From contig JACPXH010000004.1 in NCBI GenBank assembly GCA_016196625.1, forward strand, positions 71,993-135,992: DNA of 64,000 nucleotides. The letters are read 5' to 3'. The notes under the pieces were generated by a model. The model saw nothing but the letters and a program-made list of their open reading frames with translations. It searched no databases and was not told the origin of the DNA. Position numbers and translations under genes: made by a program. Below, piece by piece: positions 37,990-45,320 of the stretch; the stretch's first letter is position 1, and every line of letters starts with the position of its first letter. This stretch comes from Candidatus Parcubacteria bacterium. GTDB lineage: Bacteria; Patescibacteriota; Minisyncoccia; JACPXH01.

Positions 37990-38063
37990 CGGGGCGTCGT
38001 ACAATGGTAGTACGCAAGGCTGGGGGTCTTGTGACCGGGGTTCGATTCCCCGCGCCCCGACCA
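37990..38063 (+). tRNA. tRNA-Pro (anticodon GGG), CCA encoded
   Basis: Cloverleaf folded by hand: acceptor CGGGGCG/CGCCCCG, D-arm GTAC-AATGGTA-GTAC, anticodon arm CAAGG-CTGGGGG-TCTTG (U33, anticodon GGG, G37), T-arm CGGGG-TTCGATT-CCCCG, discriminator A, CCA. Confidence 0.8.
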
Positions 38064-41787: not shown

Positions 41788-43014
41788 ATGCGCAGTAACC
41801 CAACTCGGAAGACAATCGGCGTATTTTTCGGAAGCCGGAGTGCTGAGCACGACGTCTCCATCATTACGGCTCAACTCATCATGGCGGGCTTGCGCGCGCT
41901 CGGCTATGCGGTTATGCCCGTCTACCTTACCAAGCAGGGCACGTGGCTGCTCGGAGAAGAACTGGGGGAACTAAACTGGTTTACCGATCCCGGAAGAACG
42001 GCCAGCCGGGACAAAAAGTATCAGCGGTACTCCTTGGACCTCGAGGCATCGCGGGGAAAGTTAGTCTTTAGGGAAAAAGGCTGGAACAGAAAGACCGTAA
42101 CCATTGACCTTGCTTTCCCCGCGTTCCACGGAACCTTCGGCGAAGACGGCACGATCCAAGGACTTTTTGAACTGTTCGGGGTTCCCTATGTCGGCTGCGG
42201 CGTACCCGCTTCAGCCGTCGCCATGGACAAAGCCCTCACGAAACAACTGTGCCAAGTCCATAACATTCCCACTACCCCTTTCATATCCTTCTCGCGCCAC
42301 GCCTGGGAAACGGACAAGGCGGCCGTCCTCGCGCGGGTACAGAGTGAACTGCGCTGGCCAGTATTCGTAAAGCCGGTACACCTCGGATCATCAATCGGCA
42401 TTGCCAAGGTGAAAGAGCGAAACGGAAACGATCTCGAGTTTCGCATCGAGGTCGCACTCCACTATGACGATACCGTACTGGCAGAAGAAGCCGTGGAGCA
42501 TGTTATGGACGTAACGTGCTGTGTAGTGGGCAACGATGAACTGCGGACTTCGGTTCTGCAAGAGTCAACTTTTTCGGCTGACCTCTTTGATTTTGAAACC
42601 AAGTATCTGGAAGAAGGGGGCGCGCAATGGGGAAAATCGCGAAGTCGCGTCGTCATCCCGGCCCGCGTAGACGAAGATACTACTCGTGAAATTCAAGAGA
42701 TGGCCAAGCGCGTCTACCGCGCGATTGGCTGTAGCGCCATCGCGCGGGTAGATTTCCTCTATGATCAAGCCTCGAAGCGCCTGTATGCCAACGAAGTTAA
42801 CCCGCTGCCCGGCACCCTCTACCACCACCTCTGGAAAGCGAGCGGGCTGGAACTGCCGCAACTGCTGGAAGAATTGCTCAAACTGGCAGTCGAACGCCAA
42901 GCGGCGCGGGAGCGCCTCACGTACGCGTTTGCTTCAGACATCTTACGTCAGCCTGCCGCTGCCAAACTAAAACTGGTTAAACCGCAGACGCACGAGCGCA
43001 ACGCAGAAAACTGA
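41788..43014 (+). CDS. ddl: D-alanine--D-alanine ligase
   Basis: GVFFGSRSAEHDVS N-terminus and ATP-grasp motifs. Confidence 0.85.
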   Translation: MRSNPTRKTIGVFFGSRSAEHDVSIITAQLIMAGLRALGYAVMPVYLTKQGTWLLGEELGELNWFTDPGRTASRDKKYQRYSLDLEASRGKLVFREKGWNRKTVTIDLAFPAFHGTFGEDGTIQGLFELFGVPYVGCGVPASAVAMDKALTKQLCQVHNIPTTPFISFSRHAWETDKAAVLARVQSELRWPVFVKPVHLGSSIGIAKVKERNGNDLEFRIEVALHYDDTVLAEEAVEHVMDVTCCVVGNDELRTSVLQESTFSADLFDFETKYLEEGGAQWGKSRSRVVIPARVDEDTTREIQEMAKRVYRAIGCSAIARVDFLYDQASKRLYANEVNPLPGTLYHHLWKASGLELPQLLEELLKLAVERQAARERLTYAFASDILRQPAAAKLKLVKPQTHERNAEN

Positions 43015-43087
43015 CGCGCTCCTTCAACGTGCCCGCGGATAAAATCAGTTCGACCCGACCGACAGCCTCAGTGATTTTGAACTAAAA

Positions 43088-43112
43088 AGTCCCCTGGTGG
43101 GGGCTTCTTTAG
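43088..43112 (+). terminator. Putative intrinsic terminator of ddl
   Basis: AGTCCCC-TGGT-GGGGGCT then TCTTT. Confidence 0.35.
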
Positions 43113-43410
43113 TGGCTTTGCAAGTTGGAGTGTAGAAATTGGCACAGCTCCAGGTGGGTGCCCGCAGTCTTGGCCCACGGGCCAAGAATCATATGAGGCT
43201 CCCCGGAAAAACAATTTGACCCAAAATCATACAATGTGCTGGTGCCCGCCAGAGGCGGGTGGCACGCCTGCAAAGCCACGTATAGTATAGACGACCTGAG
43301 CGTAAAAAGGAAACGCCCGACCAGAACAGTCGGGGCGCACCATAGGCCGGCGAGAAGAATCCTGTCTCCTTTCTCCTGCCGGAGAAGTTTTACGATAAAA
43401 GGAACAAGGG

Positions 43411-43484
43411 TGGGGTCGGGAGGGTTTGAACCTCCATCTTCCGCAGGATCGCTGCGGAGCTCTCACCAATTGAGCTACGTCCCC
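43411..43484 (-). tRNA. tRNA-like gene, formal anticodon GAU (Ile), with non-canonical anticodon loop; possibly a pseudo-tRNA
   Basis: Canonical D-arm (GCUC-AAUUGGUGA-GAGC) and T-arm (GGAGG-UUCAAAC-CCUCC). Acceptor has an A5/A68 mismatch. Anticodon loop is GCGAUCC (C33 and C37 instead of U33 and a purine at 37). No CCA encoded. Confidence 0.45.
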
Positions 43485-43835
43485 ACCGTGAAAAGCGAAG
43501 CGGAGTCCGCCGAAGCATGCCGGCCCTCCTTCGCCGAGGCCCCGGAGGATCCACCTCCGCATGACTGAAAGAACTCGTAACGCATACCGGGCGGAGGCGG
43601 AAACAACCAAGCCTTCCCGTTCGGGAAGGCTTGTCCTGTAACGCTATCTGTAAACTTGCTTCAGGCGTCTGCCTTCCCTGCAGATTTCAGAATGACCGCA
43701 AGCGTAATAACCAAGGCTTGGAACGCCTGGCGATGCGCCATCAATTCTGAAATCAAGAAGGCCATAAATCAGCTTACTCCAAAGATATCTCTTCAGTTCA
43801 GGCCACGTCAAGGCGGTTATCAACACTGTAAAAAT

Positions 43836-43868
43836 GACAACGGGAAGCCGCCTGCGGCTTCCCGTTTT
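43836..43868. terminator. Bidirectional intrinsic terminator
   Basis: GGGAAGCCGC-CU-GCGGCUUCCC has 9-10-bp perfect arms and is flanked by T-runs on both strands. Confidence 0.5.
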
Positions 43869-43881
43869 CTGGCCTACGCGA

Positions 43882-44082
43882 TCACCCCCCCCTAACTTTC
43901 GTGAGCAGTTGCCTAAGCTCCTGACGCCTAGCCACCGACCTCCGTCTTTCTTGCCTGGTGGGAACAAAGACAAGATGCTTACCTCCGTGTCCTACATACC
44001 GAGTTTCAAGGCCAAAGCGCCTGTGGATAATGCCCGGGATGATACGCTCGGCATCCTCGCGGTTTTCGGCTATAAGGTACAT
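43882..44082 (-). CDS. Small protein (66 aa) with weak HicA-like GxHGGKHLVF motif; second gene of a 2-gene cassette
   Basis: ATG preceded by SD GGGGGAGGGG 5 nt upstream. Overlaps the upstream ORF by 13 nt. G8 homopolymer near its 3' end. Confidence 0.45.
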   Translation of the reverse strand: MYLIAENREDAERIIPGIIHRRFGLETRYVGHGGKHLVFVPTRQERRRSVARRQELRQLLTKVRGG

Positions 44083-44288
44083 GCGGCCCCTCCCCCGTAC
44101 TCGCCTCGCGGGGGCACGCGGATGAACTTCCCGCTGACGATCCGCCACTCCTCCCCGCAGGTACAGTACGCTGCGAGTATGCGGCCGGTGCCCACAAAAG
44201 CAAACCCAGCCGGCCGACGCGACTGAACCGACAATTCTCCATTGCAAGCGGGACATTGGTAAAAAGGAACGCTCCCATTTACGCTCAT
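44070..44288 (-). CDS. Small zinc-ribbon protein (72 aa; CPAC...CTCG)
   Basis: Translation re-derived by hand. SD GGGAGGAGGTG lies 5 nt upstream of the ATG. Four Cys as CxxC-x30-CxC. Confidence 0.5.
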   Translation of the reverse strand: MSVNGSVPFYQCPACNGELSVQSRRPAGFAFVGTGRILAAYCTCGEEWRIVSGKFIRVPPRGEYGGGAACTL

Positions 44289-44329
44289 AGCGCACCTCCT
44301 CCCGTTGCGGGTTAGCCCACAACATCAAA

Positions 44330-44366
44330 CCCGCCGGACCGAGCGGTTCGGCGGGCTGTTTTGGCG
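44330..44366. terminator. Hairpin plus U-tract in the leader of the small-ORF cassette, terminator-like on both strands
   Basis: CCCGCCG-12 nt loop-CGGCGGG then UUUGAUGUUGUG (minus) or CUGUUUUGG (plus). Confidence 0.4.
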
Positions 44367-44459
44367 AAGGAGAAACTTACGAACGCACAACAACCAACCT
44401 AACCGCCTCCAGACGGCTAAACTGAAACGAGAAGCACCAGTTGATTGTCATTAGCCCTA

Positions 44460-44488
44460 AAGATATTCAAGCCGCAACCAGCTGTCAA
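44460..44488 (-). promoter_or_regulatory. Sigma70-like promoter (TTGACA-17 bp-TATCTT) driving the small-ORF cassette
   Basis: Consensus -35 TTGACA and a 17-bp spacer, read on the minus strand. Confidence 0.4.
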
Positions 44489-44518
44489 CCGACGAATGTC
44501 CACAGCTCAACCAAGGGT

Positions 44519-44553
44519 TAAAAACGAACGTCCCGCCATGGGAATACGGCGGG
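44519..44553 (-). terminator. Intrinsic terminator of ndk
   Basis: CCCGCC-10 nt loop-GGCGGG then ACGUUCGUUUUUAAC. Confidence 0.4.
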
Positions 44554-44612
44554 CAAACGCGGAATTGAGCCCTCGGCCATCCGCCGCTTGATAAAAAGAA
44601 AGAACAGCGCCC

Positions 44613-45320
44613 CTAAAACATAATATCCTCTTCGGCGCGTTTATAATCGTAAACTTCTTCTGGCGCAAACCAGTGCTCAATTTCATGCGCTGCTTCCTCG
44701 GGCGTGCCGGAGGCATGAACAATGTTACGCAACGCCCGCTGGTGGCGGTTGGCAAGCAAGGGGGAATCAATGGAATAATCCCCCCGAATCGTGCCCATCT
44801 CGGCGTAGGCCGGGATAGTTTTGCCCACAAGCTTGCGGACCATGTCGATCGCATGAATCCCTTCGACGATCATCTTGATCACCGGGCCGGAAGACATGAA
44901 TTCCACCAACCATTGGCGGACACGCAATCCGATTTTGTGCGGATCAACAGTGCCATACTCGGCTTTGATGTCAGTCTCCGGCTCATATTGCGTATACGTC
45001 CGCAAGGTGTTCTCGCCCAAATTGATGATGTAGTCGCGATCTCTCGAATAGTGGCCGTCCATCTGCTGTTTGGTCGCCCAAATCATGTTGAGCGCGATAA
45101 CTTTGAGACCCCGCTGCTCAATGCGCCGGATGATCTCACCGGTGAGGCCGCGCTTGACCCCATCGGGCTTGATGATGACCACCGTACGCTCTTGCTGGAC
45201 CGATTGCTTTTTTGTGCGCTGTCGGGGACGCATAATGAAGCTCCGCGGGCTTACGCCTGCGGTATCCTCGGCGGAATCAGCCGCAGCATTCCGAAGGTAT
45301 GCCCTTTGATATTTACTCAT
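44613..45320 (-). CDS. ndk: Nucleoside-diphosphate kinase (long form with insertion and N-terminal extension)
   Basis: VVIIKPDGVKRGL...NIVHASGTPEEAAHEI has the catalytic His. Possible later start at MRPRQRT. Confidence 0.75.
   Translation of the reverse strand: MSKYQRAYLRNAAADSAEDTAGVSPRSFIMRPRQRTKKQSVQQERTVVIIKPDGVKRGLTGEIIRRIEQRGLKVIALNMIWATKQQMDGHYSRDRDYIINLGENTLRTYTQYEPETDIKAEYGTVDPHKIGLRVRQWLVEFMSSGPVIKMIVEGIHAIDMVRKLVGKTIPAYAEMGTIRGDYSIDSPLLANRHQRALRNIVHASGTPEEAAHEIEHWFAPEEVYDYKRAEEDIMF

Follow-up and report, generated by a model that had tools for sequence, protein, structure and literature searches.

The window analysed here, a 64,000-nucleotide (nt) stretch of contig JACPXH010000004.1 from a Candidatus Parcubacteria genome, carries on its minus strand a compact unit made up of a promoter, a structured leader, two small open reading frames (ORF1 and ORF2) and a terminator, located between ndk (44613-45320, minus strand) and ddl (41788-43014, plus strand). 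Ndk puts the window within the Parcubacteria: a protein search with Ndk identified the source genome's own protein as MBI3304909.1 (Candidatus Parcubacteria, encoded on a 143-kb contig), the Ndk of close relatives at 80-82% identity and one more member of the same 90% cluster at 91%. An original prediction, made from the letters of the window, had proposed a self-contained promoter-leader-two-gene-terminator unit, and this arrangement recurs in relatives. A synteny check in related genomes located the unit at the same site, downstream of ndk, in loci L081/L082, L083/L084, L088 and L089, whose Ndk shares 81-91% identity with that of the window; all conservation tests reported below draw on only four effectively independent lineages. 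The features of the unit are as follows.

44460-44488, minus strand: sigma-70-like promoter TTGACA-17-TATCTT, matching 10 of 12 consensus positions in a motif scan.
44289-44455, minus strand: structured leader of about 165 nt with four elements, from folding and alignment.
44377-44451, minus strand: upstream open reading frame (uORF) for a putative leader peptide, MTINWCFSFQFSRLEAVRLVVVRS, 24 codons plus TAA, its frame conserved in relatives.
44388-44407, minus strand: segment 2, formed by the 3' part of the uORF and able, in masked folds, to pair with the attenuator hairpin's 5' arm.
44366-44375, minus strand: anti-Shine-Dalgarno (anti-SD) stretch UUUCUCCUUC (CUCCUUC), beginning 1 nt past the uORF stop.
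44330-44355, minus strand: candidate attenuator (terminator-like) hairpin CCCGCCGAACCG-CU-CGGUCCGGCGGG, followed by UUUGAUGUU, -18.3 kcal/mol alone.
44295-44303, minus strand: ORF1 Shine-Dalgarno (SD) sequence GGGAGGAGG.
44070-44288, minus strand: ORF1, predicted 72-amino-acid (aa) C4 zinc ribbon, CPAC ... CTCGEEW, from its frame and relatives.
44087-44096, minus strand: internal SD of ORF2, GGGGGAGGGG, within the 3' end of ORF1.
43882-44082, minus strand: ORF2, predicted 66-aa alpha/beta protein overlapping ORF1 by 13 nt, from its frame and relatives.
43885-43892, minus strand: G8 homopolymer in the last ORF2 codons.
43839-43866, minus strand: intrinsic terminator AACGGGAAGCC-GCAG-GCGGCUUCCCGUU, followed by GUCAUUUUUA, from a hairpin scan.

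Relatives share the promoter position, the leader fold, both ORFs, both SD sequences, the start/stop overlap and the terminator, beyond what chance would produce, and on comparative grounds the two-gene locus is a genuine small operon, clade-restricted and vertically syntenic. The promoter is present at the predicted position, and both its -35 GTTGA and the position of its -10 element are kept in L081, L083, L088 and L089. Promoter-like sites in the region number three against 0.8 expected from shuffles and terminator-like hairpins 13 against 3.1, in agreement with the earlier description of the stretch as hairpin-dense; its supposed lower GC content amounts to little (0.560 across 43015-44612, with 0.583 in the window and 0.607 in ORF1). 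Operator palindromes at the promoter (GATAGCG-N4-CGCTATC) were considered and discarded, being found in L083 and L088 and not in the window or L081. At the far end of the unit, what had been called a perfect bidirectional terminator is indeed a hairpin terminator, neither perfect (94% complementary arms) nor bidirectional (T-run on one strand only), and an equivalent hairpin lies 3' of the unit in L081, L083 and L088. Few genes of this genome carry a strong SD, which makes the two consecutive SD-ATG pairs of the unit notable.

ORF1 was found as predicted, an SD-driven 72-aa ORF of zinc-ribbon type with correct coordinates. Its homologues are 71 aa long in L081, 70 aa in L083 (MBI2623957.1, annotated as 'hypothetical protein') and 84 aa in both L088 and L089, are preceded by SD equivalents reading AAGGAGG or GGGAGGG, and yield local-alignment z-scores of 6.8-20 against shuffles. 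Four cysteines are invariant across the five sequences, and the second knuckle reads C-T-C in the window (CxC; 44160-44165, codons 42-44) versus CxxC in all four relatives, which is consistent with a 3-nt deletion in the window lineage. A single-sequence AlphaFold2 model of low confidence (predicted local distance difference test, pLDDT, 56) places beta-hairpins at the Cys knuckles. The chain ends about 25 residues past the second knuckle and thus lacks a helix-turn-helix (HTH), and no recognisable DNA-binding domain was detected in ORF1. Its sequence marks ORF1 as a putative C4 zinc ribbon of generic type, from a family specific to the clade: scored against stand-alone small zinc ribbons (the haloarchaeal CPxCG proteins HVO_2142 and HVO_0758, FmdB CxxC_CxxC_SSSS, Trm112/UPF0434-like 2JNY and LysW) it falls far under the family thresholds, and its inter-knuckle RxGGFAxVGSG and CGEEW motifs are, in comparison with these, specific to the clade.

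The second frame, ORF2, is likewise present as an SD-driven 66-aa ORF with a 13-nt overlap; its homologues, all of them called genes, measure 68 aa (L081) and 64 aa (L088 and L089). Residues M1, A11, E12, R16, F17, H36, V38, L53 and V60 are invariant, the pairwise z-score is 11.9 against shuffles, and a single-sequence AlphaFold2 model reaches pLDDT 70 with a helix-strand-strand-helix order. Sequence, profile and fold searches returned no family or fold match for ORF2, which, from its sequence and model, is best described as an orphan alpha/beta protein. The two frames overlap by 13 nt in the window, by 4 nt (ATGA) in L081 and by 26 nt in L088, they share a single promoter and a single terminator, and the G-rich SD in the 3' end of ORF1 is also found in L081 (GGGAGGGG) and L088 (GGAGGAAGGAGGGGG); judging by this layout, ORF2 is translationally coupled to ORF1. 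In L083/L084 ORF2 is fully missing, with 18 nt from the ORF1 stop to the terminator (L083 8687-8735), while ORF1 and the leader are kept. ORF2 is strongly basic in the window, a charge that the L081 copy does not keep. The G8 tract at its end had been put forward as able to phase-vary, and a slip there would alter the last 2-3 residues and lengthen the tail. The tract itself is real; it is also window-specific, not occurring in the L081, L088 and L089 copies, and sits at the extreme C-terminus, and phase variation was dropped as a candidate.

Pfam, PADLOC, NCBIfam, PHROGs and PDB sequence searches assigned no family to ORF1 or ORF2, a word-indexed search of 5.8 billion proteins gave no match for either window ORF, and no clade-external homologue of ORF1 or ORF2 was found in protein, family, metagenome, viral, phage and plasmid searches. 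The sole match to ORF2 in an exhaustive HMMER search of 1.84 billion representatives, a leucine-rich-repeat protein, stemmed from a summed 16-aa motif and was rejected as an artefact, as were matches of ORF1 to 'Cake' designer-propeller entries in the PDB, a repeat artefact of the same sort. Hidden Markov models (HMMs) of the ORF1 and ORF2 families detected no extra copies or paralogues in six-frame translations from 90 sources, and no relative of the unit emerged from single-ORF and family-alignment scans of phage, plasmid, viral and JGI metagenome collections, the five-sequence ORF1 alignment being too divergent for pattern scans. The unit is absent from more distant Parcubacteria ndk loci. 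Neither window ORF is called in the source annotation and both are missing from a 15-billion-protein collection, which indicates that the source annotation missed both.

It could be asked whether ORF1 and ORF2 are functional at all, or whether they are genes in decay, or frames that happen to be open in GC-rich spacer or read-through sequence, within a locus where only the RNA elements matter. We consider this very improbable. A codon model trained on 28 long window ORFs places the codon log-likelihood of ORF1 at the 5th and that of ORF2 at the 10th percentile of real-gene segments, each being the best of its six frames, and such codon-usage scores are ambiguous taken alone: their low level would suit nonfunctional frames, but the named frame is always the top-scoring one, ranking best among all 36 frame pairs for ORF1 and ORF2 alike, and nucleotide identity in both is lowest at the third codon position. 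All three minus-strand frames are open across ORF1 and the source annotation lists neither ORF, yet both frames remain intact at similar lengths across lineages despite saturated synonymous divergence. The CxC form of the second knuckle in the window and the dispensability of ORF2 in L083/L084 would again fit decay; against them stand the four invariant cysteines, the conserved SDs ahead of both starts and the pLDDT of 70 that ORF2 attains without an alignment. Rates of change add to the case for nonfunctional frames in that the ratio of nonsynonymous to synonymous divergence (dN/dS) between L088 and L089 is about 0.5 on few substitutions (0.49 for ORF1 and 0.55 for ORF2, with 16 changed codons each, and 0.25 for the neighbouring EamA gene). 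Over the wider set, dN reaches 0.5-0.75 in ORF1 and ORF2 versus 0.06-0.12 in ndk, and the two evolve about six times faster than Ndk.

The leader upstream of these two genes contains the CCCGCCG...CGGCGGG hairpin, the U-rich tail and the CUCCUUC stretch of the original prediction, the last pairing with the ORF1 SD in the minimum-energy fold. Its fold is more stable than shuffled sequence in three lineages, with z-scores of -3.0 (window), -3.7 and -3.4. A consensus of 40 pairs derived from five leader sequences has 90.4% of its cells paired versus 32-54% in slid controls and 14 pairs changed on both sides versus 2-7 in the same controls, and none of 500 shuffles reaches the observed values. Within it, element P1 pairs the 5' end of the uORF (~44451-44437) with its 3' part (~44398-44385), enclosing an inner hairpin. 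The CUCCUUC stretch pairs with the ORF1 SD in the minimum-energy folds of all lineages, and the resulting anti-SD:SD helix (helix 3) is 95% paired with two compensatory pairs. The attenuator hairpin is kept with compensatory changes, a second type (CCAGCCCGG...CCGGGCUGG) occurring in L083/L088. The leader matches no Rfam family, and a covariance model of it, run over 704 kb of window and loci, identified no other copy.

The uORF, which had escaped the original prediction, comprises 24-25 codons in five of five lineages, with start and stop in the same alignment columns and indels of 3 or 6 nt that stay in frame. Its AUG lies 7-8 nt past the -10 hexamer in every lineage (8 nt in the window), a spacing that suggests a leaderless start, and the uORF is probably leaderless; its stop lies 1-9 nt ahead of the anti-SD stretch. 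The peptides encoded in relatives (MHLNRYFWFFGFSFFFEKGWSGAAA, MATSRYFWFTSQFTRFSVGRLVAHV and MATSRYFWFTKFTRFSAGWLGVHA) share with it the motif [NS][RW][YC]F[WS]F (RYFWF) and are aromatic- and Phe-rich. Phe, Trp and Tyr account for 10 of 25 residues in L081 (P=1e-5), 6 of 25 in L083 (P=0.012) and 7 of 24 in L088 (P=0.002), or 24-40% in relatives relative to a baseline of about 8% taken from the long window ORFs, which stand in for the proteome. Between L088 and L089, all three uORF substitutions (3/3) are synonymous.

Alternative pairings are predicted within the same leader. In folds with a ribosome mask on uORF nt 1-39, a helix between segment 2 and the 5' arm of the attenuator hairpin (2:3) forms before the 3' arm exists in five of five lineages, and in the window and L083 it also wins against the full hairpin. 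The 2:3 helix occupies equivalent alignment columns between lineages. As read from sequence and modelled folds, the set of 1:2, 2:3 and 3:4 pairings together with the anti-SD:SD helix is the anatomy of a ribosome-mediated attenuator.

These elements suggest the following scheme. The sigma-70-type promoter would start the transcript at or beside the AUG of the 24-codon aromatic-rich uORF, which we infer to be translated. Smooth translation of the uORF would let its 5' and 3' parts pair (helix 1:2), upon which the GC-rich hairpin with its U-rich tail (3:4) would form and the pyrimidine stretch past the uORF stop would cover the ORF1 SD; with both 3:4 and the anti-SD:SD helix in place, the operon would be off at the levels of transcription and translation. 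A ribosome stalled on Phe, Trp or Tyr codons near the uORF 5' end would instead free segment 2, which could then pair with the 5' arm of the hairpin as a 2:3 antiterminator and permit read-through into ORF1 and ORF2. The signal behind such stalling may be a shortage of aromatic aminoacyl-tRNA or a general translation stress. We give somewhat better than even chances to the combined proposition that the locus is a genuine clade-restricted syntenic small operon and that a leader-peptide (ribosome-mediated) attenuator of this predicted kind controls it.

The conserved leader could also act as a cis-regulatory RNA independent of uORF translation, as a ligand or temperature sensor or as an autoregulatory site bound by ORF1 in the manner of ribosomal-protein leaders, with the open frame incidental. 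Conserved structure with compensatory changes and an SD sequestered in all predicted states are what such an RNA would display, an open 24-codon frame has a 34-46% chance of arising at such composition, the C-to-U changes between L088 and L089 are neutral for RNA pairs too, and aromatic codons are few in the window uORF. An incidental frame would not, however, be expected to have AUG and stop columns shared by all lineages, in-frame indels of 3 and 6 nt and a conserved RYFWF; its AUG sits exactly at the position of a leaderless start, in every lineage segment 2 imitates the hairpin's 3' arm, and the leader belongs to no Rfam family. On this balance we judge an RNA switch that dispenses with uORF translation to be unlikely.

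Several observations weigh against control of the operon by a leader-peptide attenuator. The sequences that served to test the leader structure are also those from which it was derived. The C-to-U changes in the uORF, though synonymous, keep G-U pairs as well and so cannot separate constraint on the peptide from constraint on the RNA. The window uORF itself has only 4 Phe, Trp or Tyr codons in 24 (17%, P=0.12). Whatever the ribosome mask, equilibrium folds of the full leader retain the hairpin and leave the SD mostly paired; they do not switch, and any switch must therefore be kinetic. In the window and L083 the attenuator hairpin is followed by a weak U-tract. As regards the genes, the dN/dS values of ORF1 and ORF2, based on 16 changed codons each, cannot formally reject neutrality, and the source annotation calls neither of them. 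Classical attenuators, moreover, regulate amino-acid biosynthesis or aminoacyl-tRNA synthetase genes and not orphan small proteins.

Compared with known systems, the predicted attenuator resembles the trpL, pheL and ilvL attenuators of E. coli in its short codon-enriched uORF, in its 1:2 and 3:4 terminator pairing set against a 2:3 antiterminator, in regulatory codons lying in or beside segment 1, and in a GC hairpin with a U-rich tail ahead of the genes. It differs from them in controlling two orphan small proteins, and not biosynthesis or aminoacyl-tRNA synthetase genes, in a Parcubacteria host, the candidate phyla radiation (CPR) being generally reported to lack amino-acid biosynthesis, and in its apparently leaderless uORF, its extra anti-SD:SD helix, the lack of an Rfam leader match and the four aromatic codons of the window copy. 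The ermC and cat leaders, which act by translation attenuation, likewise have a short leader ORF, an SD buried with an upstream segment and induction by stalling in the leader; their stall depends on a drug and the nascent peptide and their targets are resistance genes, whereas the leader described here bears no sign of such dependence and precedes non-resistance genes. In mycobacteria, stalled ribosomes on leaderless amino-acid-rich short ORFs (sORFs) unmask a sequestered ribosome-binding site (RBS) (10.1101/834739). By analogy, these leaderless polycysteine sORF attenuators (Canestrari et al., 10.1101/834739) are the nearest documented counterpart of the putative leader peptide: a leaderless short ORF forms the first cistron, and amino-acid-specific stalling is proposed to act on a structure sequestering the RBS of the next gene. 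Here the codons are Phe, Trp and Tyr in place of Cys, a terminator-like hairpin is added, the downstream genes lie outside the metabolism of the sensed amino acid, and the system is predicted from sequence.

If the operon is under attenuator control as proposed, the ORF1 zinc ribbon and the ORF2 alpha/beta protein would be made together by way of their overlapping stop and start and the internal SD, and the two may act jointly as small stress-response effectors; a zinc ribbon next to a basic ORF2 hints at nucleic-acid or ribosome binding. As to the origin of these genes, the unit had been taken for acquired rather than core sequence. It is syntenic in every recovered member of the clade and has no relatives in the mobile-element (phage, plasmid or viral) and metagenome collections scanned, and for these reasons it is judged not to be recent foreign DNA. 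The surrounding islet is mosaic though. The window and L088 are 89-90% identical in ndk and again from the 6S promoter onward, and the intervening window segment 44616-43279 cannot be aligned to L088 (6618-9239) save for a hairpin (81%) and the tRNA-like gene (76%); L088 and L089 show 0% divergence in ndk, 7-9% from EamA through ORF2 and 0.9% in a 35-codon ORF. By these comparisons the islet is recombining between close relatives.

A mosaic, recombining site would be congenial to a novel type II toxin-antitoxin-like pair, with ORF1 as zinc-ribbon antitoxin and ORF2 as small toxin, co-translated and leader-repressed, and further properties of the unit fit this picture: two small genes overlap and are translationally coupled, the putative antitoxin coming first; they evolve fast (dN as above); L083/L084 have lost ORF2 and kept ORF1, in the manner of orphan antitoxins; and ORF2 is strongly basic in the window, with one His invariant in the family. 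That basic charge is, on the other hand, not kept in L081, no DNA-binding domain can be recognised in ORF1, the phages, plasmids, viral contigs and metagenomes scanned contain no copy of what is a fixed, syntenic locus, and control of the unit has the look of leader-peptide attenuation, not of operator autoregulation. Neither does any toxin, antitoxin or defence family show similarity to the pair in Pfam, NCBIfam, PADLOC, PHROGs, PDB and fold searches, nor do direct comparisons with HicA and MqsA (0.14% and 1.1% hhalign probability, respectively) support it. A toxin-antitoxin function for the pair is in our view improbable.

The comparison with HicA bears on a specific claim, namely that ORF2 is HicA-like by virtue of its GHGGKH stretch, and this claim failed. 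Like HicA (PF07927) of the HicAB systems, ORF2 is short (roughly 60 aa) and basic, has a His within a strand and comes from an operon of two overlapping genes, but in sequence, profile and fold the two show no similarity. The window and L081 copies, the two that were scanned (those of L088 and L089 were not), have no match to Pfam HicA_toxin (PF07927) at E<=10, in a library that scores four reference HicA sequences at up to 1.4e-23. Alignment of the four-sequence ORF2 family with a HicA alignment in hhalign gave the probability of 0.14% over 2 aligned columns; the HicA alignment consists of four PF07927-matching sequences, and its profile retrieves 1WHZ, 5YRZ, 4C26, 6HPB, 6G26, 9SVK and 4P78. 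The first His of GHGGKH is unconserved, and the one invariant His of ORF2 (xHxV) stands in a context that cannot be aligned to HicA. The helix-strand-strand-helix model departs from the secondary-structure order of the HicA double-stranded-RNA-binding-domain-like alpha-beta-beta-beta-alpha fold, and the partner of ORF2 is an upstream 72-aa zinc ribbon devoid of HicB, Pfam or PADLOC matches, where HicAB systems have HicB downstream. Membership of ORF1 in MqsA or another known antitoxin family fared no better. It shares with MqsA (a YgiT-type zinc N-domain plus HTH) the CPxC ... YCxxC ligands about 30 residues apart and a small adjacent partner gene; ORF1 has no HTH, in mqsRA the toxin gene comes first, the 1.1% hhalign probability against the verified MqsA zinc domain covers the second knuckle only, and there is no NCBIfam YgiT match. 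Motif-level likeness of the kind 'GHGGKH, like HicA' is unreliable ground for a functional call.

A more ambitious extension of leader-peptide attenuation, which we put forward as decidedly speculative and rather unlikely, is that an aromatic-codon leaderless peptide senses amino-acid or translation stress in CPR bacteria and switches on a new zinc-ribbon plus alpha/beta effector, possibly toxin-antitoxin-like or causing ribosome-targeting growth arrest, as part of a recombining 'starvation islet' in which a further small-ORF unit precedes an aberrant tRNA-Ile-like RNA (both described below). Should attenuation of the operon itself be borne out, it would be, to our knowledge and in the literature searched, the first leader-peptide attenuator described in Patescibacteria/CPR; it would represent an attenuator uncoupled from amino-acid biosynthesis, a ribosome-stalling sensor driving two orphan small proteins, and would offer a testable handle on nutrient or translation-stress sensing in host-dependent bacteria of reduced genome. 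Whatever the mechanism, conserved small genes of 72, 66 and 24 codons and several RNA genes are absent from the source annotation.

The remainder of the stretch between ndk and ddl had been called otherwise non-coding, which does not hold: besides the uORF and the tRNA-like gene, it contains a probable 6S RNA and a conserved ORF of 34 codons (ORF34), which defines a second small unit.

43661-43765, minus strand: ORF34, MAFLISELMAHRQAFQALVITLAVILKSAGKADA, 33-35 codons conserved in relatives.

This unit has a promoter-like site at 43782-43811 and a hairpin with compensatory changes at 43608-43633, and lies just upstream of the tRNA-like gene. ORF34 is Leu-, Ile- and Val-rich, its relatives also end in GK[AV][DY][AV], and a 9-mer at its end (CGGGAAGGC) repeats the 3' arm of the downstream hairpin. 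Its codon score is gene-like (0.28), its protein similarity is weak and its RNA folds as a long rod; a small membrane peptide, a leader peptide and a small RNA are all conceivable. When ORF34 was considered as a second attenuator, the downstream hairpin stayed in place under every ribosome mask.

Between that hairpin and the tRNA-like gene, the window has an extra GC-rich, hairpin-forming segment of about 110 nt (43490-43600, minus strand; GCGGAGGTGGATCCTCCGG...GGCGGACTCCGC) that is window-only, relatives having 15-45 nt at that place. The adjacent tRNA-like gene of the original prediction was confirmed by ARAGORN and Rfam (43485..43408). It is tRNA-Ile(GAU)-like (43408-43485, minus strand), with an anticodon loop G-C-GAU-C-C in which the universal U33 is replaced by C33 and position 37 is a pyrimidine, an A5-A68 acceptor-stem mismatch and no encoded CCA. 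It is 76% identical to the L088 copy, the flanks being about 90% identical, and the corresponding genes of relatives, with loop G-[U/C]-GAU-C-[C/A], score only 43.7-54 bits; a tRNA-Pro(GGG) at 37990-38063 in the same window is canonical. A tRNA-targeted island was considered and rejected, since the tRNA-like gene has the unit on its 5' side and no tRNA-related repeat occurs other than an inverted 16-mer of chance quality.

The probable 6S RNA (43115-43277, minus strand) scores 18.4 bits in Rfam in the window and 24.6 in L081, under the gathering score of 46.4 and so uncalled. Its features include a TATAAT-like -10 of its own, closure by an 11-bp stem (GGCUUUGCAGG / CUUGCAAAGCC), a bubble at the centre and a conserved CACCCACCUGGA; it is 83-90% conserved in the clade and was also found by blastn just downstream of distant Parcubacteria ndk genes (L033, L003, L006 and L008). 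The literature searched contained no mention of 6S RNA together with the candidate phyla radiation. On the ndk side of the operon, a gene for EamA (a DMT-family transporter) intervenes between ndk and the unit in L083 (7287-8183), L088 (6720-7619) and L089 (1122-2021), as also in L084, whereas the window and L081/L082 lack it; its distribution does not track the Ndk phylogeny. The longest ORF of ndk itself encodes 235 aa (44613-45320, minus strand), and the GenBank form, which starts 29 codons in and is 206 aa long (MRPRQR...), is the shorter version that relatives back.

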